Shown: positions 1-12,301 of the stretch, piece by piece
How positions within the stretch are numbered: position 1 is the first letter of the stretch
Layout of the letters: every line of letters starts with the position of its first letter
Source: Candidatus Latescibacterota bacterium
GTDB lineage: Bacteria > Latescibacterota > UBA2968 > GCA-2709665
Length of the DNA: 64,000 nt
NCBI GenBank assembly: GCA_965219995.1
Contig: CBDCOX010000002.1
Span: 2,976,001-3,040,000, forward strand
Reading direction: 5' to 3'
Program-made: the position numbers and the translations under genes
The notes under the pieces: model-generated
What the model was told of the DNA's origin: nothing
The model's database searches: none
The model's input: only the letters and a program-made list of their open reading frames with translations

Positions 1-420
1 CTGGAGGTGTCACAACACCCTGAGAAGCGGGAATCGCAACGCGTGCTGGCCGAGGAGGTCACCACTCTGGTTCACGACAGCGCCGCCACCGGGCGCGCGC
101 ACAGGATTTCCGAGGCGTTGTTCTACGGTGATCTGCGCGATCTGAGTGCGAGAGAGATCGAGGAAGGGTTCAGCGACGTGCCGTCTCACGCGCTCAACGG
201 CGTGGTGGAAGCAGGTCTGGTCAAACTTCTGGTGGATGCGGGCATTTCATCTTCGATGCGCCAGGCCCGCGAAGACGTCAGGTCCGGCGCCGTATATCTC
301 AATGGACTGCGCTGCACCGATGTGGGCCGGACCCTCGCCCCTGACGACAGGCTCGCAGGCGGATACCTTATCGTACGACGTGGCAAACGCCGCTACTTTC
401 TCGTACGCTGGAACCTTTGA
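1..420 (+). CDS. tyrS: Tyrosyl-tRNA synthetase, C-terminal part (5' truncated by window edge)
   Basis: QRVLAEEVTTLVH helix and S4-like domain ending ...SSMRQAREDVRSGAVYLNG...IVRRGKRRYFLV. Confidence 0.9.
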   Translation: MEVSQHPEKRESQRVLAEEVTTLVHDSAATGRAHRISEALFYGDLRDLSAREIEEGFSDVPSHALNGVVEAGLVKLLVDAGISSSMRQAREDVRSGAVYLNGLRCTDVGRTLAPDDRLAGGYLIVRRGKRRYFLVRWNL

Positions 421-516
421 CGGGCGGTTTCGGGACCGCTCTTGTATATGGGTATAGTAATCAGGTTCAGGATATTCGGAACCCGGCAGGAAAAACAAAA
501 AGAGAGGATTCTTTCG

Positions 517-1494
517 ATGAAAGCACCGTGGATAACCTATCGGCCGGAACTGAAAGTACTCGATTGTACGATTCGTGACGGCGGATTGATGAACGACCAC
601 CAGTTCTCCGATGATTTCGTGAGGGCGGTTTATGAAACCTGCGTCGACGCGGGTGTCGACTATATGGAAATCGGTTACCGGAACTCCAAGGAGATGTTTC
701 CCAAAGACCAGTTCGGGGCTTTCCGACACAGCGACGAAGAAGATATCCGGAAGATTACAGGCGACCACGACCCGGAAACAACCGGCCTGAAGCTCGCCGT
801 TATGGCGGACGCGGGCAAGAGTGACTGGGCGGAAGACATCCTGCCGGCAAGCGACAGCGTCGTCAGTATGGTACGGGTCGCCTGTTACGTGGAGCAGATT
901 CCCGAGACCGTCGAAATGCTCTGCGACGCCCACGAAAAGGGATATGAGACCAGTTGCAATATTATGGCCGTCTCCACCGTGCAGGAGGTGGAGGTCGATC
1001 AGGCGCTGGAAGTCCTGATCGAGACGCCCGTCGGTACGATCTGCGTCGTTGACAGTTTTGGCGCATTGTACCGGGAGCAGGTGGATATGCTCATCCGGAA
1101 GTATATGGATGCCGTAAGCGGGACGGGGAAGGAAGTGGGTATTCACGCGCACAACAACCAGCAACTTGCATTTGCCAATACCATTGAAGCGCTCATACTC
1201 GGCGCAAACCGCGTGGATGCCACGGTGGACGGTCTTGGAAGGGGCGCGGGGAATTGCCCCCTGGAGCTGCTGCTGGGTTTCCTCCGCAATCCCAAATTCA
1301 AGATCCGGCCCGTCTACAAACTGCTGGAGGACCATTTTGTCAAATTGCGCGAAGAACTGACGTGGGGGCCTCTCGTTCCTTACAATATCACGGGGCAGCA
1401 CAATCAGCATCCACGCTCGGCAATGGCGCTGCTGGACGGGAAAGACCGCGATCGCTATCTGGCATTCTACGATCAGGTGATGAGGGACATCTGA
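517..1494 (+). CDS. DRE-TIM metallolyase (HMGL-like / 4-hydroxy-2-oxovalerate aldolase-like)
   Basis: LDCTIRDGG, VDSFG, GIHAHNN, GLGRGAGNCPLE motifs; ATG at 517 preceded by GAGG. Confidence 0.8.
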   Translation: MKAPWITYRPELKVLDCTIRDGGLMNDHQFSDDFVRAVYETCVDAGVDYMEIGYRNSKEMFPKDQFGAFRHSDEEDIRKITGDHDPETTGLKLAVMADAGKSDWAEDILPASDSVVSMVRVACYVEQIPETVEMLCDAHEKGYETSCNIMAVSTVQEVEVDQALEVLIETPVGTICVVDSFGALYREQVDMLIRKYMDAVSGTGKEVGIHAHNNQQLAFANTIEALILGANRVDATVDGLGRGAGNCPLELLLGFLRNPKFKIRPVYKLLEDHFVKLREELTWGPLVPYNITGQHNQHPRSAMALLDGKDRDRYLAFYDQVMRDI

Positions 1495-1592
1495 TCGGGT
1501 GGCCCCTGCGCCGGCAGCTGGAAAACGGACTGACGCCCGCCCCGGCGAGGGTTTGAACCCACGCTGGGACCCCATCTCTACAGGATAGAAAA

Positions 1593-2804
1593 ATGGCACT
1601 TCCGAGAGCAGATGAACCATCCGGCACATTGCCCGACTCCGGGGGGCATTTCGGTCCCTACGGCGGGCGATACGTGCCGGAGACGCTGATGCCGTTGCTG
1701 GAGGACCTGGAGGCGGCGTACCGGGATAGCAGGGACCGTCCGGATTTCGTGAGTGAGCTGAACGGGTATCTCAGGGAGTTTGTAGGAAGGCCGACGCCGC
1801 TCTACTTCGCGAAGCGCCTGACCGCGGAACTGGGCGGCGCCCGAATCTATCTGAAACGGGAGGACCTCGCGCACACCGGCGCGCACAAGATCAACAACAC
1901 GATGGGGCAGATACTGCTTGCCAGACGGATGGGCAAGACGCGGATCATCGCGGAAACCGGCGCGGGCCAGCACGGCGTGGCAACAGCAACCGTGGCTGCG
2001 ATGTTCGGAATGGACTGCGAGATTTACATGGGCACGGAAGACATGGAGCGGCAGGCGCTGAATGTGTTTCGGATGCGGCTCCTCGGCGCAAGGGTGACGG
2101 GAGTGGATTCGGGCAGCAGGACCCTGAAGGATGCGATTAACGAAGCCATCCGCGATTGGGTGACGAACGTGGACGATACGTTCTACATTTTCGGATCCGT
2201 CCTGGGACCTCATCCGTATCCGATGATCGTTCGTGATTTTCAGCGCGTCATCGGAGTGGAGGCTCGAGAGCAGATCCTGCGGGCCGAGGGCCGGCTGCCG
2301 GAATGTCTTATCGCGTGCGTCGGCGGCGGCAGCAATTCCATCGGTCTGTTTCACGCATTTCTCGAGGACGCGGACGTACGGATGATCGGTGTCGAAGCGG
2401 GCGGGCATGGAATTGCCTCGGGCGATCACGCGGCGCGCTTTCAGGCTGGGGATCTGGGCGTGCTGCACGGGGCCAGGATATACCTCCTGCAGGACGAGGA
2501 CGGGCAGATCGCGCTGACCCATTCCGTTTCCGCCGGTCTGGACTATTCCGGAGTCGGTCCTGAACACTGCCATCTGCGAGACGCGGGACGGATCGAATAC
2601 GCGTACGCAACCGACGACGAGGCACTGAAGGCCTTTCAGCTGCTGAGCCGTACGGAGGGGATCATCCCCGCCCTGGAAAGCGCGCATGCGATCGCGTACG
2701 TGACAAGAGCCGCGCCTGAAATGGGCAGGGATGCCGTTGTCGTCGCGAATCTTTCAGGGAGGGGCGACAAAGACGTGCAGCAGGCGGCGAAGTTCCTCGA
2801 CTGA
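1593..2804 (+). CDS. trpB: Tryptophan synthase beta chain
   Basis: [28 protein letters not shown] (PLP Lys), [15 protein letters not shown]. Confidence 0.98.
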
Positions 2805-2857
2805 GTGGAATCGTACCGCTCGTTCCAGGGCTGGAATCGACACACGGGATTGTTCGG

Positions 2858-3670
2858 ATGACAAGAATCGGAAAGCGGTTCGCATGGTTGAAGAAGACGC
2901 GAAGGACCGGATTCGTCGCATATATCACCGCGGGAGATCCGGACCTGGCAACCACCCGTAAACTGGCGCCGGAGCTTGAACGGCGCGGGGTGGACATTCT
3001 CGAGCTGGGTGTGCCTTTCTCCGATCCGCTCGCGGACGGACCGGAGATCCAGCGGGCGTCACAGCGGGCCCTGCGGCATCGGGTGTCGATCGGCGACGTG
3101 CTGGATCTGGTGTCGGACCTGCGGCGCGAGACGGAAATACCCATTGTGCTCTTTACGTATTTCAATCCTATGCATCGGTTCGGTCTTGAACGGCTCGTCG
3201 ACAGGGCGGCCGAAGCGGGGGTAGACGGCATTCTTGCGCTGGATCTTCCGCCCGAAGAAGCGGCCGAGTACAAGCGTCTGATGGGTAAACGGGGATTGGA
3301 CACGGTTTTTCTGATCGCGCCGACGAGCCGCGAGGATCGCATCCGTCGGATCGCTTCATCTACCAGCGGCTTTGTGTATTACGTGTCGCGCACGGGCGTT
3401 ACGGGGGAGCGGGACAGCCTGGAGGAGACACTCGGCGCAAGGGTGGCGACCATCAGACGACATACCTCGCTGCCGGTTGCGGTGGGATTCGGTATTTCAA
3501 CCCCCGAACAGTCCAGGGAGGTTGCGGGATACGCGGATGCCGTGGTCGTCGGCAGCGCAATCGTCCGACGAATCGCCGAGCGGCAGACGGACCCGGACCT
3601 CGTTCCCCACATCGGGGCATTCGTGGAAGAACTGGTGCAACCCCTGAAGGGAGCATCCAATGGACCTTGA
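2858..3670 (+). CDS. trpA: Tryptophan synthase alpha chain
   Basis: YITAGDP, ELGVPFSDPLADGPEIQ, VSRTGVTG, VGFGIS, VVVGSA. Confidence 0.98.
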   Translation: MTRIGKRFAWLKKTRRTGFVAYITAGDPDLATTRKLAPELERRGVDILELGVPFSDPLADGPEIQRASQRALRHRVSIGDVLDLVSDLRRETEIPIVLFTYFNPMHRFGLERLVDRAAEAGVDGILALDLPPEEAAEYKRLMGKRGLDTVFLIAPTSREDRIRRIASSTSGFVYYVSRTGVTGERDSLEETLGARVATIRRHTSLPVAVGFGISTPEQSREVAGYADAVVVGSAIVRRIAERQTDPDLVPHIGAFVEELVQPLKGASNGP

Positions 3671-3953
3671 AGACTGGCGGAAGGAAATCGACGCCCTGGA
3701 TCGACAGCTCCTGGCGCTACTGAAACGACGCGCCGAATGTGCGCTTCAAATCGGCATGATCAAACAGACGATCGAACAGCCGATCTACGCGCCGGAACGC
3801 GAGACATCGATCCTCAACCGAATTCGCGAACTGAACGCCGGACCCCTGACCGACGAAGCGGTGCAACGAATATTTCAGCAGATTATCGATGAGTCCAGGC
3901 GGCTCGAACAGGAGCACGGCGAACGGCAGTCCGGAGACGTGAAACATCCCTGA
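3660..3953 (+). CDS. Chorismate mutase (AroQ/CM_2, standalone)
   Basis: LEDWRKEIDALDRQLLALLKRR...IGMIK...YAPERE; overlaps trpA stop. Confidence 0.9.
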   Translation: MDLEDWRKEIDALDRQLLALLKRRAECALQIGMIKQTIEQPIYAPERETSILNRIRELNAGPLTDEAVQRIFQQIIDESRRLEQEHGERQSGDVKHP

Positions 3954-3967
3954 TTCATCAATGGAGC

Positions 3968-5005
3968 ATGCAGCGCATGGCGTTTACGAAAAACATGAAG
4001 ATTCCCACACCGGAAGCCGTGCTGGAGGAAATGCCGCTTCCGAAGAAACTGAAGGACGTAAAGGAGCAGCGGGATGCGGAGATCAGGGACATCTTCGCGC
4101 GCAGGAGCCGTAAATTTCTGCTGGTGATCGGCCCCTGTTCAGCGCACGATGAAGATGCAGTGTGCGAATACGTTTCCAGGCTGGCGAAACTGCAGGAGGC
4201 CGTCCGTGAAACGCTGGTTCTGGTGCCTCGCATCTATACCAACAAACCCCGCACGACCGGCGAGGGGTACAAGGGCATGGGGCATCAGCCGGACCCCCGA
4301 AAGGCGCCGGACCTGTCCGAAGGCATCTACGCGGTTCGTCAGATGCACATCCGCGCAGCCGAGGAGTCCCACCTGACGGCGGCCGACGAAATGCTGTATC
4401 CGGGCAATCTGCCTTATGTCGAGGACTTGCTGAGCTATATAGCCGTGGGTGCGCGGTCGGTGGAAAACCAACAGCACCGATTGACCTGCAGCGGCGTCGA
4501 CGTGCCCGTTGGAATGAAGAACCCGACGGCGGGCGATCTGTCTGTGATGTTGAATGCGATTCAGGCCTCTCAGATCCCACACGTCTTCATCTATAACGGA
4601 TGGGAAGTCAGCACCAGCGGCAATTCCCTGACACACGCCGTGCTTCGCGGCGCCGTGGACGTTAACGGGCGCAGTATGCCGAACTATCATTTCGAAGACC
4701 TGATGTACGCGGCGGCACTCTATGGTCAACGGCAGCTTGCCAACCCCACGATCGTCGTGGATACGAATCACAACAATTCCGGCAAGCAGTTCAGTGAACA
4801 ACCCAGGATCGGATTGGATGTGATCCGCAGCCGACGGAATTCAACAATACTGTGCGAAATGATCCGCGGGTTGATGGTTGAGAGCTATCTGGAAGAAGGC
4901 TCCCAGAACGTCAATGAAGGCGTGTTCGGCAGATCCATTACCGATCCGTGCCTGGGGTGGGAAGATACCGAGGCGTTCGTTAAGGAACTGGCGGAGGGGA
5001 TATGA
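3968..5005 (+). CDS. DAHP synthase, class I-alpha (start uncertain among several Met)
   Basis: IGPCSAHD, KPRTT, VGARSVENQQHR, VGMKNP, SITDPCLGWE. Confidence 0.95.
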   Translation: MQRMAFTKNMKIPTPEAVLEEMPLPKKLKDVKEQRDAEIRDIFARRSRKFLLVIGPCSAHDEDAVCEYVSRLAKLQEAVRETLVLVPRIYTNKPRTTGEGYKGMGHQPDPRKAPDLSEGIYAVRQMHIRAAEESHLTAADEMLYPGNLPYVEDLLSYIAVGARSVENQQHRLTCSGVDVPVGMKNPTAGDLSVMLNAIQASQIPHVFIYNGWEVSTSGNSLTHAVLRGAVDVNGRSMPNYHFEDLMYAAALYGQRQLANPTIVVDTNHNNSGKQFSEQPRIGLDVIRSRRNSTILCEMIRGLMVESYLEEGSQNVNEGVFGRSITDPCLGWEDTEAFVKELAEGI

Positions 5006-5083
5006 TAGCGAACGGGATCGGAAGACAGGAACGGAGCCGGACGTTCCGCAGGCGCCCCGGCCGCCGTTTCCGGGGATAACCGC

Positions 5084-6196
5084 ATGGCCAACGATCCTCC
5101 GTTTGCACGTGAGACCATTGCGATTGTGGGTGTCGGGCTGATTGGCGGTTCTCTTGGCGTGGGGTTCAAGAGTCTGGGCATCGGACGACGCATCGTCGGC
5201 ATCGGCAGGCGTGAGACGCTGGATGCGGCACGCAATCTGAACGTCATCGACGCGGGCTATCCTTACGAGGAACTCGCCGCCGGTATTCGCGAAGCGGCGC
5301 TCGTTTTCCTGTGCACCCCCATTGTACGTATTCTCGACCTGCTGCCGGAGGTGCTGGCGGCGGCGCGCCAGAATGCGGTCGTGACCGACGTTGGCAGCAC
5401 CAAGCACGCGGTTGTTTCCGCCGCGGCGGCCCATCGACGGGGCGGCGTGCATTTCGTGGGCGGGCACCCGATGGCGGGTTCCGAGCACCGCGGGGTTGGC
5501 GCGGCGGATCCGTTCCTGTTTCAGAATGCGATCTACGTACTGACACCCTCGCCGGACACGCCCGATTTCGTGGTCGATAAGCTCTCACGCCTCGTCAGGA
5601 CGCTCGGGGCGAGACCGATGAGGATGACGCCACGGGAACACGACCGGGCGGCGGCGGCGGTAAGTCACCTGCCGCAGATGATGGCCACAAGCCTCGTATC
5701 CATGATCGGACGGATGACCGAAGCCGAAGGGCTGCCGATCCGGATGGCGGCGGGCGGGTTTCGGGATCTCACGCGCATTGCTTCCAGCCCGTATGAGATG
5801 TGGCGGGATATCTGCCGAACAAACGCGTCCCAGATCCGTGAGATGATCGATCGGTATATCGAGTCGCTGGCGGCGCTTCGCGGGGCCGTGGACGGAGAAC
5901 GGCTGGAGCAGTCGTTTGCCTTTGCGAACCGGGTACGCGGTCAGATCCCGAAGGACTCCAAGGGGTTCTTGCATCCGCTGCACGAAATACTCCTGGTGGC
6001 GGAAGACAGGCCCGGCGTGATCGCCGACGTCGCCCGGACGCTGGCCGCGGCGAGAATCAACATCAACGACATCGAGGTGTTGAACGTCCGTGAGGGAGAA
6101 GGGGGCACCATCCGGATGGGTTTCGATTCGCGTCCATGCGCGGAACGGGCCGTGGACTTGCTGGGGAAGGCGGGATACAGCGTCAGATTGAGGTAA
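5084..6196 (+). CDS. tyrA: Prephenate/arogenate dehydrogenase with C-terminal ACT domain
   Basis: GVGLIGGS Rossmann motif, DVGSTK, GGHPMAGSE, SHLP, GFRDLTRIA; ACT motif EDRPGVIA. Confidence 0.95.
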   Translation: MANDPPFARETIAIVGVGLIGGSLGVGFKSLGIGRRIVGIGRRETLDAARNLNVIDAGYPYEELAAGIREAALVFLCTPIVRILDLLPEVLAAARQNAVVTDVGSTKHAVVSAAAAHRRGGVHFVGGHPMAGSEHRGVGAADPFLFQNAIYVLTPSPDTPDFVVDKLSRLVRTLGARPMRMTPREHDRAAAAVSHLPQMMATSLVSMIGRMTEAEGLPIRMAAGGFRDLTRIASSPYEMWRDICRTNASQIREMIDRYIESLAALRGAVDGERLEQSFAFANRVRGQIPKDSKGFLHPLHEILLVAEDRPGVIADVARTLAAARININDIEVLNVREGEGGTIRMGFDSRPCAERAVDLLGKAGYSVRLR

Positions 6197-6277
6197 ATGG
6201 ATGCATCCGGAACGGGAGACGATCGAGCGGAATCCATGTCCGTCCTGTAATGAATCCATTTTGAAAGTGGGGCGGTT

Positions 6278-7585
6278 TTGGAATTCACGGCCTTATTGAT
6301 TGCCGAAGGCGCGATCACGCCTTCATCCGGGCTGGTGGGGACGTGCGACCTCCCCGGCGATGCCGACGTGTCGATCATGGCCCTGGCGCTATCGTCCAAG
6401 GCCGATGGCGTCTCCCGGATTCACCGGTGTTCGCGAAAACCCGACGTCGAGCGTGCTGCGGGATTGCTGACGGCGCTTGGGATTTCGGTTGCGTGGGACG
6501 CCGAGACCGCGACGGTGACCGGCGGCCGCGTCCGGGCGCCCGCCGACGTACTGCATGTGGGTGGGTCCCTGGTTCTGTTCTCCTGTCTGGCGGGATTGCT
6601 GTCAAATGCGCCGTTTGTCACCAGACTGTCCGGGGCTTCGGCGGACGCCGGCGTCGACCGGTTATTCGAGGCGCTCCGCAGCCTGGGCGCCACCCCGGAG
6701 ATATCCCACGAGGACGGGATATCGGCGAGTGTCGGATTGGACAGGTTAACACCCGGATCCTACCGCGCGGGGCTTCCCGAACCGGCGGTGAAGTGCGGCA
6801 TGTTGATGGCCGGTGTAGGTGTGGACGGAATCGTCGAACTGGTGCAGGACAGCGGCGGAGATGACGATCTGGAAGTGTTGCTGCAAGCAGCGGGATGCGG
6901 TCTGAAAAAGGGGCGGATAAAGGGCGCCAGAGGTCGTCGGCTGACGTTGGAAGGCCCCGCACGGCTCCGCGGCGTGACTCACGTGTTGCCGGGCGGTTCG
7001 GATGCAGCGCTTGTTCTTTCGCTCGCGGCGGCGATGTTGAGCCGCTCCGAATTGACGGTAACTCATTTCGGACTGGATTCGAAGAGCCGCAGCATCGTGG
7101 ACCTGCTGCGCCGAATGAACGTGTCAATGGATATGGAGCAAACCCGGACTGAGTCCGGCTTTCCCGTACGACGCGTCCGGATCTGGTCGTCGGACTTGCG
7201 TGGCATAAAGATCGCCGGCGCGGCTGCCGGGCGCCTTTTGGACGAGCTCCCCATCCTGGCGGCCGCGGGCGCGGTTTCCAGGGGCGAAACGATCATTCGG
7301 AATGCCGAGGCATTGAGGGACGGCGAGGTAGACTGCATTTCAGTACTGGTGGAAAACCTGAGAAAGATGCAGGTTCAGGTCGGGGAGATGCCGGACGGAC
7401 TGGTTGTAAAGGGCGGTCAACCGCAGGGCGCCGAACTGGATGCCGCCGGCGACGCCCGCGTGACATTGGCGCTCACACTGGCTGCGCTTGCGAGCGAAGG
7501 GGAGACCCGTCTGAAGAACCCCGGCCCGGTGGACCGGATGTATCCCGGGATCATGGATAGATTGGCTTCGGTTTTGGACCGATAG
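6278..7585 (+). CDS. EPSP synthase (AroA)-fold protein with degenerate active site; probable pseudoenzyme
   Basis: Collinear with class II AroA over 435 aa (LPGD, LDELPIL, GET.I..AE.LR, DGLVV.G, GD.R, YP), but the KSISHR, GNSGT, RP, SAQ, RDH, KE.NR and DHR residues are replaced. Confidence 0.85.
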   Translation: MEFTALLIAEGAITPSSGLVGTCDLPGDADVSIMALALSSKADGVSRIHRCSRKPDVERAAGLLTALGISVAWDAETATVTGGRVRAPADVLHVGGSLVLFSCLAGLLSNAPFVTRLSGASADAGVDRLFEALRSLGATPEISHEDGISASVGLDRLTPGSYRAGLPEPAVKCGMLMAGVGVDGIVELVQDSGGDDDLEVLLQAAGCGLKKGRIKGARGRRLTLEGPARLRGVTHVLPGGSDAALVLSLAAAMLSRSELTVTHFGLDSKSRSIVDLLRRMNVSMDMEQTRTESGFPVRRVRIWSSDLRGIKIAGAAAGRLLDELPILAAAGAVSRGETIIRNAEALRDGEVDCISVLVENLRKMQVQVGEMPDGLVVKGGQPQGAELDAAGDARVTLALTLAALASEGETRLKNPGPVDRMYPGIMDRLASVLDR

Positions 7586-7669
7586 GCCGCGCAGGTCGTT
7601 CAAATGCCCGCCATGGATCGTCGCGGCACGATACGGTGTGGGTTAATCATCTGTACGAGGAGACTCCTT

Positions 7670-7810
7670 ATGAGACTGGTTGTCAGGTTGTTCCTCTTGG
7701 CGTTGCTCGTGTTTATGGGTGGTGTTGTTTTCATTCGGTACACCTACAAATGTTCCTGGAAAGAGAGTTTCGCAATTGCCGACCAGTTTGTGTCTGACCT
7801 GACCAGTTGA
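7670..7810 (+). CDS. Small (46 aa) single-pass membrane protein
   Basis: GAGGAG RBS before ATG at 7670; hydrophobic LFLLALLVFMGGVVFI. Confidence 0.6.
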   Translation: MRLVVRLFLLALLVFMGGVVFIRYTYKCSWKESFAIADQFVSDLTS

Positions 7811-7876
7811 ACGAGTGTCAGGACTTCGGCTGGCGGGACGCAGCCACAATAGAGTCCAAGTTTTGCGGGGCCCGTT

Positions 7877-8743
7877 TTGGGTATTGTCTCAACCACGCGG
7901 CTGCTGGGAGTGATTGGCGACCCGATTGCCCATTCGCTATCGCCGGACATGCACAATGCGGCCATCAGCGCTCTCGAAATGGACTACTGTTACGTGGCAT
8001 TCCACGTTTTGCCGGACGGGGTTGAACCGGCGCTCCGGGGAATGCGTGCATTGCAGATCCGGGGATTGAACGTAACCCTTCCCCACAAGACCGCGGTGAT
8101 TGGGCACCTCGATCAGACTTCGGAAGAAGCACTGGCCGTAGGTGCGGTGAATACGATCTCTTTCGAGGAGGGCGATCTCGTCGGCCACAATACCGATGTG
8201 TACGGGCTGGCCACCGCGCTGGAGCGGACGGCGGGCCTCGCGGTATTGCCGGAGCACTGCGTGATTCTCGGCGCGGGCGGCGTCGCGAGGGCCGCCGTTT
8301 ACGCGCTGGCAACGAATGACGACGTGCGCCGCGTGAGCATACTCAATCGGACCGTTGCCCGGGCGGAAGCGCTTGCGCATGACATGGAAAGGATCACGGG
8401 TAAGACGATAGACGCAGGCGACCTGACGGCAGACACCCAGTTGAGCGTGTTCGCGGATGCCGGCCTGGTTGTAAACGGGACGTCGCTGGGGATGGTTCCG
8501 GACGTGGAGCGGACGCCGCTGGCCGACACCTCTGCGATTCACTCTGAACTCGTTCTGTACGATACGGTTTTCAACCCGCTCGATACGCTGCTGATGCGGC
8601 AGTTCCGGTCCGCGGGCGCGCCGGCGTTTGGAGGACTTGACATGCTCGTGCACCAGGGTGCGCGTTCGTTTGCCATCTGGACGGGTGTCGAACCGCCCGT
8701 CGACGTCATGAAACAGGCGATTATCGGACGGTTTCGGGCATAG
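7877..8743 (+). CDS. aroE: Shikimate dehydrogenase
   Basis: GDPIAHSLSP.MHN, GLNVTLPHK, GAVNT, GHNTD, LGAGG, NRT, MLVHQG. Confidence 0.97.
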   Translation: MGIVSTTRLLGVIGDPIAHSLSPDMHNAAISALEMDYCYVAFHVLPDGVEPALRGMRALQIRGLNVTLPHKTAVIGHLDQTSEEALAVGAVNTISFEEGDLVGHNTDVYGLATALERTAGLAVLPEHCVILGAGGVARAAVYALATNDDVRRVSILNRTVARAEALAHDMERITGKTIDAGDLTADTQLSVFADAGLVVNGTSLGMVPDVERTPLADTSAIHSELVLYDTVFNPLDTLLMRQFRSAGAPAFGGLDMLVHQGARSFAIWTGVEPPVDVMKQAIIGRFRA

Positions 8744-8745
8744 CG

Positions 8746-9471
8746 GTGGCGAGTTCCCATCTTCAGGAACGCAATGCCAGGCGGACATTCGTGCGTCAGA
8801 TGTTCGACGGCATCGCCGGCACGTACGATCTGCTGAACCACCTGTTGAGCGCCGGCGTGGATATTCTCTGGCGGCGATGGACCATCGACGCCCTCGAATT
8901 GAAAGCCGGCTGGTGGATCCTGGACCTTGCAACCGGAACGGGCGATCTGGGTCTCGAAGCGGCTGCCCGCGATTCGGGGGTGCGGGTTGTGGGTGCGGAC
9001 CTTTCCCGGCCGATGCTGCGGCTGGGAACCAGGAAAAAGGAGAAAAGACCCGGCCAGCTCTTTTTTCTGTGTGGAGACGCGGAGCGGCTTCCGTTCCCCG
9101 ATGCGCGGTTTCAGGCCCTGACCATTGGTTTCGGGGTACGGAACTTTTCGGACCTGGCGACTGGATTGCGGGAAATGCACCGGGTCCTCCGCCCCGGCGG
9201 CCGGCTGGCAATTCTGGAATTCTCCCGGCCCAGAGCGTTTCTTCTGCGCAGGGTCTACTTCTTTTATTTCAAATGCATCCTGCCCGGGATCGGCCGGCTT
9301 GTATCCCGGAATCCCCGGGCATATCGGTACCTTTACGAATCTGTAATGGGTTTTCCTGAAGGGGACGCATTCCTGAGACGTCTGGCGCGGGCCGGTTTTG
9401 TGGAACCTGAGGAACGCCGGTTCTCCTTTGGCATCGCCACACTCTACATGGCAAGGAAGAATGAAGAATGA
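8746..9471 (+). CDS. menG: Demethylmenaquinone methyltransferase (UbiE/MenG)
   Basis: MFDGIAGTYDLLNHLLSAG, LDLATGTGD, GDAERLPF, FGVRN, AYRYLYES. Confidence 0.93.
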   Translation: MASSHLQERNARRTFVRQMFDGIAGTYDLLNHLLSAGVDILWRRWTIDALELKAGWWILDLATGTGDLGLEAAARDSGVRVVGADLSRPMLRLGTRKKEKRPGQLFFLCGDAERLPFPDARFQALTIGFGVRNFSDLATGLREMHRVLRPGGRLAILEFSRPRAFLLRRVYFFYFKCILPGIGRLVSRNPRAYRYLYESVMGFPEGDAFLRRLARAGFVEPEERRFSFGIATLYMARKNEE

Positions 9472-9763
9472 AGAAGGAGGAATGGTTGGGTCCTCCTGAG
9501 GTTTATCCATAAGTATTCTGAAAGGTGACCTGCCGGCGGACGAACATCTGACAGCCAATCGCTGTCCTCGTCATTCAGACGCCAATCGGTCTACAATAGT
9601 ATTTCCTGATCGGAGGTCTCCCAGAGCAGAGCGCGCTGATCAGTCCAGCAACGCGGATTGTTGTTCTTCCGAGGATGTCAGGGCAGAGGATCCTGTGCAT
9701 CCTGTGAGGGGATTCGCGCGGTGCATATGGCAGGCCCCGCGCCCAGCGGCGACTATTCTAGAT

Positions 9764-9915
9764 GCGGTAAGAGGGTAGCCGTGAGACGGTAGAGGATAGC
9801 GTTACCACAGTGTTTTCACGCTAACCGTGCCTGTTTCCCTACCGTTATCGTAACAACAAGAAATACGACAAGGCACTGAAACCATCTCCCGTCTCCCGTC
9901 TTACGTCTCCCCGCC
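9764..9915. repeat. Family A palindromic intergenic element (heptamer arms plus core 1)
   Basis: Left arm gcggtaagagggtagccgtgagacggtagagga and right arm catctcccgtctcccgtcttacgtctccccgcc; the ~85 bp core is nearly identical to the core at 58637-58720. Confidence 0.85.
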
Positions 9916-9977
9916 TTTAGGGAATTTGGGGAGATGTGGACATTGAATTTGAACTTGATCTTCGTCTCTTGCTTCAA

Positions 9978-10012
9978 GCTGACTGCTGATTGCTGACCGC
10001 TGATAGCTGTTT
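9978..10012. repeat. Heptamer tandem repeat (GCTGAYN)x4-5
   Basis: gctgact gctgatt gctgacc gctgata gctgttt; same unit at 34504-34524. Confidence 0.8.
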
Positions 10013-10040
10013 CCGCTGCCGCGAGAAGAGGTACTCCTGA

Positions 10041-11741
10041 ATGGACAATCCGTTCATTGATGAAATCGTATCGCAGGTCTCAAGAGCGACTGACACGCGT
10101 CCCGATGAGGTGAGGCCGCTGATCGAAGTCCCTCCCAAACCCGAGATGGGGGATTACGCGCTGCCGTGTTTCGGCCTTGCAAGAACGCTTCGGAAGGCGC
10201 CGAATCAGATCGCGAGGGACCTTGAGGCGCGAGTGCGCACGAGCGCGCGCATTGCCCGGGTGAGCGCCATGGGCCCGTATCTCAATATCTTCCTGAGCCA
10301 GACCGAATTCGTCCGGGAAACGCTTTCGCAGATTCTCGCTGCGGGCAGGCAATACGGACACAGCAGCGAGGGCGCCGGGAAGACGGTCGTGATCGATTTC
10401 TCGTCACCGAATATCTCCAAGCCGTTCACGATCGCCCACATCCGTTCGACGGCGATCGGGAATTCGCTCTGCAGGATCTACGGGTCGCTCGGCTGGAACG
10501 TGATCGGCATCAATCACCTCGGCGACTGGGGGGCCCCGCACGGGATGAATATCGCGGCGTACAAGCGCTGGGGAGATGCGAACGCGGTCCGCAGGAATCC
10601 TCCCTTCGAGCTGTTCAATCTGTACGTGAAGTTCAATGCCGAGTTGGAAAGGGATCCGTCTCTCGGTGACGACGTCAAGCTCTGGACCAGGAAACTGGAG
10701 GCCGGCGATGCCGAGGCGCTGCGGCTGTGGAAATGGTTCCGGGAAGAGACCATAAGCGATTTCAAGCGAATTTACGAATTGCTGGACGTGACATTTACCG
10801 AATACACGGGTGAAAGTTTCTTTCATGACAAGGTGGGGCCGGTTGTCGACGAATTGAAGGGAAAAGGGCTTGCCGTCGAGAGCGAAGGCGCCCTCGTTGT
10901 CATGCTGGACGACGACATGCCGCCGGCCATCATCCAGACGGGGCACGATACCAGCGTCTATCTCACGCGGGACCTGGCCGCTGCGATTTACCGTAAAGAG
11001 ACCTACGACTTCGATAAGTTGATTTATGCGACCGACGCCGGGCAGTCCCTGCATTTCCGGCAGCTTTTCAAGGTGCTGGAACGGATGGGCTATGAATGGG
11101 CGAAAGACTGCGTTCACGTCCCGTTCGGCATTATCTCCTTTAAAGAGGGCAGGATGTCGAGCCGAAAGGGCAACGTGATTTTCCTGGAGGACGTGCTGAA
11201 CCGCGCTGTTGAGTTGACACGGGAAATCGTTGAGAACAAGAATCCGGATCTTCCGGACAAAGACGCGATCGCCCGGGACGTGGGCATCGGTGCGGTGGTC
11301 TACGCCGACCTGGATTCGCGCCGGACGCGGGACGTGGTATTCGACTGGGATGAGATCCTGAATTTCAATGGCGAGACCGGCCCCTACGTTCAATATACCC
11401 ATGCCCGCTATTGCAGTGTGCTGCGCAGGTACGGCGGCGCGGCGGCTCCGGCCGGGGCGGACCTTTCTCTGTTGACCGAAACCGAGGCCGTGGCCGTGGT
11501 CAAGTGCCTGGAGCGGTTTCCGCAGCGTATCCGGAACGCGGCCGAGGCCTGTGAACCGTCTCTGATTGCCGGGTACCTGATCGAACTCTGTGCAGAGGCG
11601 AACCGGTTTTACAACGCCCACCGGGTCATCTCAGAAGACGCGACCCTGACACGGGCGCGTATCGCCCTCGTTTATTCGATCACCGCCGTGCTGGCAGCCG
11701 GACTCCATCTGCTGGGCCTGAAGGCGCCGGAGGAAATGTGA
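10041..11741 (+). CDS. argS: Arginyl-tRNA synthetase
   Basis: IDFSSPNISKPFTIAHIRS (HIGH variant), NHLGDWG, MSSRKG, GETGPYVQYTHAR, C-terminal APEEM. Confidence 0.97.
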   Translation: MDNPFIDEIVSQVSRATDTRPDEVRPLIEVPPKPEMGDYALPCFGLARTLRKAPNQIARDLEARVRTSARIARVSAMGPYLNIFLSQTEFVRETLSQILAAGRQYGHSSEGAGKTVVIDFSSPNISKPFTIAHIRSTAIGNSLCRIYGSLGWNVIGINHLGDWGAPHGMNIAAYKRWGDANAVRRNPPFELFNLYVKFNAELERDPSLGDDVKLWTRKLEAGDAEALRLWKWFREETISDFKRIYELLDVTFTEYTGESFFHDKVGPVVDELKGKGLAVESEGALVVMLDDDMPPAIIQTGHDTSVYLTRDLAAAIYRKETYDFDKLIYATDAGQSLHFRQLFKVLERMGYEWAKDCVHVPFGIISFKEGRMSSRKGNVIFLEDVLNRAVELTREIVENKNPDLPDKDAIARDVGIGAVVYADLDSRRTRDVVFDWDEILNFNGETGPYVQYTHARYCSVLRRYGGAAAPAGADLSLLTETEAVAVVKCLERFPQRIRNAAEACEPSLIAGYLIELCAEANRFYNAHRVISEDATLTRARIALVYSITAVLAAGLHLLGLKAPEEM

Positions 11742-12301
11742 GTCAGACCGCGCATGGTTCTCTGCTGCGGGGCAGGCAGATCTTCCTGACCGGTTTCATG
11801 GCGACCGGAAAGAGCAAGGTCGGCCCGATTCTGGCGCGGCGCCTGGATCGGCGATTCGTGGATACGGATGAGTTGATCGTGGAGACGGCCGGGAAGTCGA
11901 TCCCCCGGATCTTTGCGGAAGACGGAGAAGCCGCATTCCGTCGTATCGAACGCGGATGCGTGGCGCGTGCGGCCGGGATGCCCGATGCTGTCATCGCTCT
12001 GGGTGGCGGCGCCGTTACGCAGGAGGGCAACTGGGATACGATTCGCGCATCCGGAATCTGCCTGTGTCTGCGGGCATCGGCGGAGACCGTTTTCAAGCGC
12101 CTGCGAAGGACAGAGGGAGAACGGCCGCTGATGGCCGGTTTGACCGATGAAGGCCGGATGGCGAAGATCCGGTCGATGCTGGCGGCCCGGGCGCCGTTTT
12201 ACGACCGTGCGGACGCATTCGTGGAGTCGACGGAGTATCGCGCGCCGGAAGAGACGGTTCAACTGGCGGTGTCGGCATTGGAAGGCCTGCAATCGCGATA
12301 G
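11738..12301 (+). CDS. aroK: Shikimate kinase
   Basis: LTGFMATGKS, FVDTD, GE.AFR..E, ALGGG, ERPL; GTGA overlap with argS. Confidence 0.96.
   Translation: MSQTAHGSLLRGRQIFLTGFMATGKSKVGPILARRLDRRFVDTDELIVETAGKSIPRIFAEDGEAAFRRIERGCVARAAGMPDAVIALGGGAVTQEGNWDTIRASGICLCLRASAETVFKRLRRTEGERPLMAGLTDEGRMAKIRSMLAARAPFYDRADAFVESTEYRAPEETVQLAVSALEGLQSR

Follow-up and report, generated by a model that had tools for sequence, protein, structure and literature searches.

5-Enolpyruvylshikimate 3-phosphate (EPSP) synthase, the product of aroA, is the target of glyphosate and a textbook example of a single-function enzyme. Here we describe a gene of the EPSP-synthase fold whose frame and operon position are kept and whose active-site residues are replaced. 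The gene, labelled X, is the open reading frame (ORF) at 6278–7585 on the forward strand of a 64,000-nucleotide stretch (the window) from Candidatus Latescibacterota bacterium (assembly GCA_965219995.1, contig CBDCOX010000002.1, positions 2,976,001 to 3,040,000); residues are numbered according to its protein, P0001. In the reading that we prefer, with a probability of about 0.65, X would be a pseudoenzyme by descent, the C-terminal domain of which is under selection for a non-enzymatic role.

The closest described enzymes are the class II EPSP synthases, which include the solved structures 3RMT, 1RF4 and 3ROI/3SLH and the intact AroA of other Latescibacterota classes (L063, L064, L065, L071, L076 and L077). 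Like these enzymes, X has the full-length fold, and like those of its own phylum, it occupies the slot between tyrA and aroE. Different from them, X is without most of the polar substrate-binding and catalytic residues, scores below the equivalog cut-off, has a long branch and coexists with a working aroA. Conserved pseudoenzymes as such are already known. The RNA 3′-phosphate cyclase-like protein Rcl1 of the small-subunit processome is a structural or binding factor without the activity of its parent enzyme. In its three-fold beta-alpha-beta-alpha-beta-beta architecture, Rcl1 (4CLQ, 5OQL chain Y and 7MQ8 chain SH) is similar to the half-size form of X described below, with Z scores of 11.1–12.7. 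However, Rcl1 is a eukaryotic protein of ribosome biogenesis and only distantly related in fold (7–12% identity), and the comparison is not meant to carry a function over to X.

The nearest published case is the TyrA-AroF fusion of Pseudomonas syringae. According to the sections of Song, Bonner, Wolinsky and Jensen (2005, BMC Biol 3:13; PMC1173090) covered here, this fusion lost about 200 N-terminal AroF residues when a stand-alone aroF was acquired, and the AroF remnant could become a regulatory domain; section 23 and Table 5 of the paper place the deletion at the N-terminus, section 30 at the C-terminus. TyrA-AroA fusions occur in nature, as is indicated by the same sections and by the NCBIfam model NF011381. 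Like the X family, the P. syringae case, as described there, concerns a tyrA-adjacent EPSP synthase that lost its function beside a stand-alone aroA of another lineage, with a C-terminal remnant kept. The likeness is one of description: there, the remnant is fused to TyrA, comes from one species and is drawn as a pseudogene in a figure of the paper, whereas X is stand-alone, full length in the window, conserved at class level and under measured purifying selection. In the literature searched, which did not cover subscription journals, no paper on a stand-alone dead EPSP synthase was found.

Fold, active site and selection

The frame of X is open across 435 codons and starts with TTG, a start that the window's sequence shares with the other 13 of the genus. 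PF00275 (EPSP synthase) matches X from end to end (157 bits, residues 14–429). The AlphaFold model of the full-length protein has a predicted local distance difference test score (pLDDT) of 92.0 and a predicted template-modelling score (pTM) of 0.91; solved EPSP synthases are its top structural matches, with TM scores of 0.72–0.80 (Foldseek E 8.8e-37). The fold of X is full length, as judged by PF00275, but its score is not that of a functional AroA: with the aroA equivalog TIGR01356, X reaches 144 bits, whereas the cut-off is 287.25. Among NCBIfam models, X matches best to the AroA half of the fusion model NF011381. MurA was considered and rejected as an identity for X, since TIGR01072 gives 50 bits against a cut-off of 392.7.

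To locate the substitutions, X was aligned residue by residue to 3RMT and 1RF4. At the motif positions, X reads PGDADVSIM (26–34), GGSLVL (95–100), DAGV (123–126), EPAVKC (168–173), GDDDLE (194–199), PGGSDA (238–243), ALRDGEVDC (345–353) and GDAR (391–394); LLDELP (320–325) and R394 are still present. The set of residues by which a functional AroA binds shikimate 3-phosphate (S3P) and phosphoenolpyruvate (PEP) and carries out catalysis (PGDKSxxxR, GNxGT, RPM, SAQ, RDHTE, DExP, KExxR, HR) is not found in X. R394, the Arg of GDHR, is invariant in the window's family (f1) and its sister family (f2), and it is the sole conserved S3P, PEP or catalytic motif residue there. The Asp-Glu pair of LLDELP is variable, the counterparts in orthologues being RDVLP, LNELP and LKEVP, so the catalytic aspartate is unconstrained too.

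A second comparison was independent of such motif lists; it used the 51 alignment columns in which eight canonical AroAs do not vary, six of these AroAs being class II enzymes of the phylum and two being of the other type. Of the polar columns, K29, S30, R34, N96, G98, T99, S173, T198, S242, K349 and H393 are lost in eight or nine of the nine full-length orthologues, and E350, T351 and R353 are retained in three, four and one of them, respectively. The structural Gly, Leu, Pro and Asp columns are mostly retained. In LRxKETDR, the Lys is replaced by Gly in every degenerate form aligned, including those of a second order of the same class (f3). On the basis of the replaced residues, X is predicted to be an EPSP synthase without catalytic function.

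Full-length X is intact in 13 of the 14 other genomes of the genus, at 68–93% identity. It is also present in other genera of the family (∼50%) and in 10 of 10 genomes of five f2 genera other than the genus g6 (40–46%). The ratio of nonsynonymous to synonymous divergence (dN/dS) was calculated by the Nei–Gojobori method over 91 genus pairs, using the same method and genomes for the neighbouring genes (Table 1). X is under purifying selection, looser than that on most of the neighbouring genes. The synonymous divergence of the C-terminal domain is not lowered, so that it is the protein that is constrained, not DNA signals embedded in the gene. Neutral divergence of 0.6 would be expected to bring ∼23 nonsense hits into the frame, and the probability of finding it open is then ∼1e-10. 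A decaying pseudogene should look different: none of the extracted orthologues contains a stop, and dN/dS is 0.15–0.27. Like other pseudoenzymes, X combines homology to an enzyme family and a shared catalytic loss with an intact frame and purifying selection. In two studies, contigs of RNA libraries match X at 90–98% identity, one of them spanning tyrA into X (5639–6338) and another spanning X into the following small ORF (7321–7819); this is a weak sign of expression, as DNA carry-over is possible. Some runs have no RNA contigs over parts of the region.

Much of what an earlier, sequence-only reading had claimed agrees with these results. It had described an intact 435-residue ORF of EPSP-synthase fold in the tyrA-aroA slot, which is borne out by the open frame, the PF00275 match and the neighbouring genes. 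Every motif replacement that it listed was found in the 3RMT and 1RF4 alignments and could be placed at P0001 residues, and the loss, which it had proposed to check for sharing, is common to all orthologues examined, not private to X. It had named the DE.P aspartate and one Arg as the residues that remain; both are in X, but the Asp-Glu part is not kept among orthologues. Its suggestion of a copy kept by selection and not in simple decay stands as well: dN/dS, for which it had proposed a test against 1, is 0.27 in the genus and 0.145 in the half-size forms, and the fold is predicted with a pLDDT of 92. Taken together, X is probably a selected, non-catalytic protein.

Descent of X and its half-size forms

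The genome that contains the window (G000) is 5.44 Mb in two contigs and has three PF00275 matches: X, murA (C2:192407-193621) and a canonical aroA (C2:4370382-4371608; locus L001 1465-2751), which reaches 461 bits with TIGR01356. The motifs of the canonical copy are PGSKSYTNR, LRIKETDR and DDHRMAM, which we take to be of the E. coli type, and the copy is far from the class II group in the tree. Its differing sequence type is compatible with replacement by transfer. The canonical aroA adjoins M48 peptidase and LD-carboxypeptidase genes, outside any aromatic-pathway context. As for the rest of the pathway, aroK lies in the window after argS and aroC elsewhere in the genome. Of the 151 genomes sampled from the phylum, 137 have a match above the aroA cut-off, and so do 47 of the 48 f1 and f2 genomes besides the window's, the exception being G005 (320 contigs). 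The sequence-only reading had stated that a non-canonical EPSP synthase step would be implied if the genome had no other aroA; because a canonical copy was found by the genome search, such a step is not implied.

Where did X come from? At three loci of other classes of the phylum (L063, L064 and L065), an aroA with all class II motifs is present in the tyrA-aroE slot, and among catalytically intact enzymes, the class II AroAs of the phylum itself are closest to X (31–32% identity, highest in the C-terminal domain). A degenerate copy occupies the same slot at seven of seven f3 loci examined; it is 26–32% identical to X, and its residues at the lost positions differ from those of X. In the maximum-likelihood tree, the degenerate forms of f1/f2 and f3 form one clade (support 100/98), with long stems of 0.7 and 0.99, respectively, whereas the branches of the phylum's intact class II enzymes are short. 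Since intact class II aroA occupies the same slot in other classes and the dead forms are a single clade, X is the positional orthologue of the ancestral aroA, displaced by an aroA of a different type; the label of paralogue, which it had been given from the letters, was dropped. As judged from the alignments and the tree, catalytic function appears to have been lost a single time, near the start of a class-level lineage in which a different aroA is present at another place in the genome.

Relatives at 93% identity or below are records of uncultured Candidatus Latescibacterota metagenome-assembled genomes (MAGs), and a few are sponge bins labelled Gemmatimonadota; the stretch was found in runs labelled sponge, coral and marine metagenome. 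Profile search was performed over 1.84 billion representatives, and the top 150 matches were inspected. Among these 150 are 15 further class II-like sequences, 12 of which are without all four regular-expression motifs and 3 of which have one; in a FastTree tree, shown without support values and used as a lead only, the 15 are nearest to class II enzymes or f3 forms. As a separate observation, relatives with motifs missing include P0176, P0179, P0181, P0182, P0185, P0186, P0194, P0198, P0200, P0211, P0225 and P0248. These are 28–47% identical to the phylum's intact enzymes and have some or all of the four catalytic motifs missing; for example, the Lys of PGDKS is changed to Arg, Asn or Thr, and LRxG replaces LRxKE. 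Seven of them join the dead clade in FastTree.

The most interesting feature of the family is its domain-exact, repeated reduction to the C-terminal domain. The N-terminal domain is presumably the S3P-binding one, in line with the title of entry 1P89. In g6, the gene is ∼216 codons in length: roughly its first twelve residues correspond to the N-terminus of X and are followed directly by PGDPD, the motif that opens the C-terminal half, so that X residues ∼26–236 are missing. The g6 junction lies within a PG(D/N)P(D/E) motif, copies of which are present at both domain borders. In the nearest full-length relative, the borders carry the near-identical stretches GGGAATCCCGAT and GGTGATCCCGAT, which suggests a deletion between internal repeats. 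The half-size form is intact in 20 of the 20 g6 genomes, with a conserved ATG start, and its dN/dS of 0.145 (190 pairs) is as low as that of the adjoining enzymes. L070, a locus of the family f4 from outside the order, has a second half-size form with a different junction. The two excisions are independent, since lineages between them have kept the full-length form.

The half-size form is predicted to fold alone, as one compact domain (pLDDT 94.1, pTM 0.90). Residues 1–215 of its model align to the N-terminus plus the C-terminal half of EPSP synthase, with a Z score of 27.3 and a root-mean-square deviation of 2.5 Å; thus the excision coincides exactly with the N-terminal domain, and nothing of the discontinuous C-terminal domain is missing. 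Clusters of 211–225-residue EPSP-synthase domains from other phyla are present in the ESM Atlas. When the half-size form was used for a database search, most of the hits beyond the family came from contigs of 1–3 kb and are probably fragments of ordinary aroA; for this reason, we do not claim half-size forms in other phyla.

Neighbouring genes

The gene order in the window is trpB, trpA, chorismate mutase (CM), DAHP synthase, tyrA with its ACT domain, X, aroE, ubiE, argS and aroK, and the sister family, as well as more distant lineages, retains the order from trpB to argS. The gene directly 5′ of X is tyrA in nearly all of the class-level loci examined. The spacing between them varies: the two genes abut or overlap in f3 and are separated by ∼11 bases in g6, 82 bases in the window and ∼1.3 kb in L070.

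Table 1. Features of the locus around X in the window, with dN/dS in the genus

Feature	Position	Strand	dN/dS	Remark
trpA			0.11	
CM			0.21	
DAHP synthase			0.10	
tyrA, prephenate dehydrogenase with C-terminal ACT domain	5084–6196	+	0.13	next gene upstream of X at the class-level loci examined
X, EPSP-synthase-fold gene predicted to be without active site, 435 aa	6278–7585	+	0.27	positional orthologue of ancestral class II aroA
X residues 1–25, N-terminal strand, structurally part of the C-terminal domain	6278–6352	+		retained in the half-size forms of relatives (alignments; half-form model)
X residues 26–236, N-terminal (presumably S3P-binding) domain, binding motifs replaced	6353–6985	+	0.33	cut out in frame in two related lineages
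X residues 237–435, bulk of the C-terminal domain, most conserved	6986–7582	+	0.22	with residues 1–25, what 20 of 20 g6 genomes keep
Small ORF, 46 codons	7670–7810	+		between X (or intact aroA) and aroE
aroE, shikimate dehydrogenase	7877–8743	+	0.13	conserved downstream neighbour
ubiE			0.15	
argS			0.11	

The small ORF has a GAGGAG ribosome-binding site; its product contains one N-terminal hydrophobic helix, followed by a conserved C-terminal SW.ES..IADQF..DL motif. In 38 of the 38 loci where tblastn located it, including loci of other classes of the phylum and one where X is deleted (G001), the small ORF sits between X or intact aroA and aroE. Its identity within the genus is 89–96%, far above that of X. 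No family of Pfam or NCBIfam matches it, the only hit (Apq12, E 0.41) being noise, and an Rfam scan of window positions 1–12000 at E ≤ 0.1 gave no match.

Two further genes were noted at the ends of this gene string. The aroK gene (PF01202, 135 bits, 11798–12280 on the forward strand; ORF 11738–12301) comes directly after argS, so that an aminoacyl-tRNA synthetase gene sits inside the string of aromatic genes. Upstream of trpB, an HMGL-like ORF (442–1494, forward strand) resembles 4-hydroxy-2-oxovalerate aldolase, at 125 bits against a cut-off of 229.

Explanations and meaning

How could a dead EPSP synthase come to be kept? As we picture it, the ancestor of Latescibacterota carried a class II aroA in a tyrA-aroA-aroE operon, and X would descend from that copy in place. 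In the ancestor of one class, an aroA of a different type, located elsewhere in the genome, would have taken over EPSP synthesis, and the old copy would then have lost its S3P-binding, PEP-binding and catalytic residues. Purifying selection would keep a folded protein, the selected part being the C-terminal domain (residues 1–25 and 237–435), and the function of X would be non-enzymatic, in binding, assembly or regulation. The residues that are invariant in the C-terminal domain of all forms (the Arg of LLRRM, IRDA, LR and NLR; GE..DG) are also present in intact class II enzymes, and those lost from this domain are the catalytic Lys, Glu, Arg and His; neither net charge nor isoelectric point shows a consistent shift. 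Because the conserved residues are ancestral and no new motif accompanies them, a retained ancestral property fits better than a new site, and the C-terminal domain of the ancestral enzyme probably had the role of X as a secondary property already. The partner would most likely be a product of the same operon. TyrA is the first candidate, since tyrA adjoins X nearly throughout, TyrA-AroA fusions exist and the P. syringae case runs parallel; even so, a TyrA-linked role is only tentatively proposed and stands below even odds. The complex of TyrA and X was predicted with a score of 0.00, which gives no verdict for or against binding and was not used as evidence.

Several observations weigh against a selected role. 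X is dispensable in one close relative, G001, whose TyrA is 93% identical to that of the window: X is cleanly deleted there, with ∼90 bases (L079 5660–5751) in place of window positions 6209–7575, the sequences on either side are 94% and 90% identical to the window, and tyrA, the small ORF and aroE have been left where they were. The sequence-only reading had not anticipated such a loss. In G016, only a 160-codon remnant that starts from an internal Met is left, without one of the three units of the C-terminal domain, and X was not found in the f4 genome G114 (590 contigs). The series from full length to half, to the 160-residue remnant and to clean deletion can also be read as stepwise erosion. 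The constraint on X is looser than that on most of its neighbours (0.27 versus 0.10–0.15, about twofold), no new conserved motif was seen in the C-terminal domain among the aligned forms, and all genomes compared are MAGs of uncultured bacteria. From the graded series, the looser constraint and the lack of a new motif, X may be taken for a functionless relic in slow erosion, gradually trimmed away by the lineages. Its frame would then stay open for one reason only, namely selection against truncations that give misfolded protein or interfere with the expression of the small ORF and aroE. We regard this as unlikely. X is retained over the whole class-level clade, although bacterial deletion bias should long since have removed a useless gene of 1.3 kb; polar effects hardly explain why it is kept, as G001 shows that its removal is mechanically easy and leaves the operon intact. 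Moreover, the excisions took away exactly one structural domain and left a unit that is predicted to fold, and after excision the g6 form is as constrained as true enzymes, in every genome of that genus.

Two other explanations depend on the interdomain cleft of the full-length form. The sequence-only reading had thought of a regulatory, scaffold or ligand-sensing paralogue; as a ligand sensor, X would bind a new small molecule or cation in its remodelled, more acidic cleft and signal to the pathway. The N-terminal domain offers something for this idea: it is itself under purifying selection in the genus (Table 1), G(D/E)(D/E)(D/N)LE (in place of SRDHTE) is conserved and R50-C51-S52 nearly invariant in the f1 and f2 forms, and its net charge is 0 to −13 in X forms versus −4 to +10 in canonical class II relatives. 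However, two lineages discarded the whole N-terminal domain, and hence the cleft, and kept the rest under stronger constraint, and f3 has quite different residues at the corresponding positions; the sensor is a poor fit and we consider it distinctly unlikely, although the f1/f2 motifs leave some room for a cleft-based role in those lineages. X might also still be an enzyme, either an unorthodox EPSP synthase or a transferase, of enolpyruvyl or another group, with a new substrate. The two-domain fold is predicted to be kept in full and structurally matches EPSP synthases, R394 is invariant in f1 and f2, and enolpyruvyl transferases with other substrates exist, such as NikO (4FQD, Z 21.2). Nevertheless, with eleven polar canonical columns gone in nearly all full-length orthologues, no single conserved alternative across the subfamilies, catalytic Asp and Glu positions that vary even among close orthologues, half-size forms that cannot form a cleft and a canonical aroA in the genome, activity of X as an enzyme is highly improbable. 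A selected, non-enzymatic C-terminal domain remains the reading that we prefer.

The family has a practical side. Some pipelines name its members 3-phosphoshikimate 1-carboxyvinyltransferase (JGI names on P0030, P0032, P0068 and P0072), and with such annotation as an active enzyme, metabolic reconstructions that count PF00275 and surveys of glyphosate sensitivity miscount in this phylum. For the biology of EPSP synthase, a dead copy that is kept class-wide and was twice cut to one domain, as constrained as an enzyme, suggests that the C-terminal domain has a non-catalytic role so far overlooked, and the 216-residue form is a tractable case for asking why dead enzymes persist. A more general conjecture, rather unlikely in our estimate, is that EPSP synthase has, in its C-terminal domain, an autonomous module that has long done a second job in the synthesis of aromatic amino acids. 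If that is true, the second job would be to bind or tune TyrA or some other protein encoded by the tyrA-aroA-aroE operon, for example the 46-residue membrane micro-protein, and it would explain why the C-terminal domain survives when a foreign aroA displaces the resident one, as it did twice in Latescibacterota and, going by the published description, in the P. syringae remnant.

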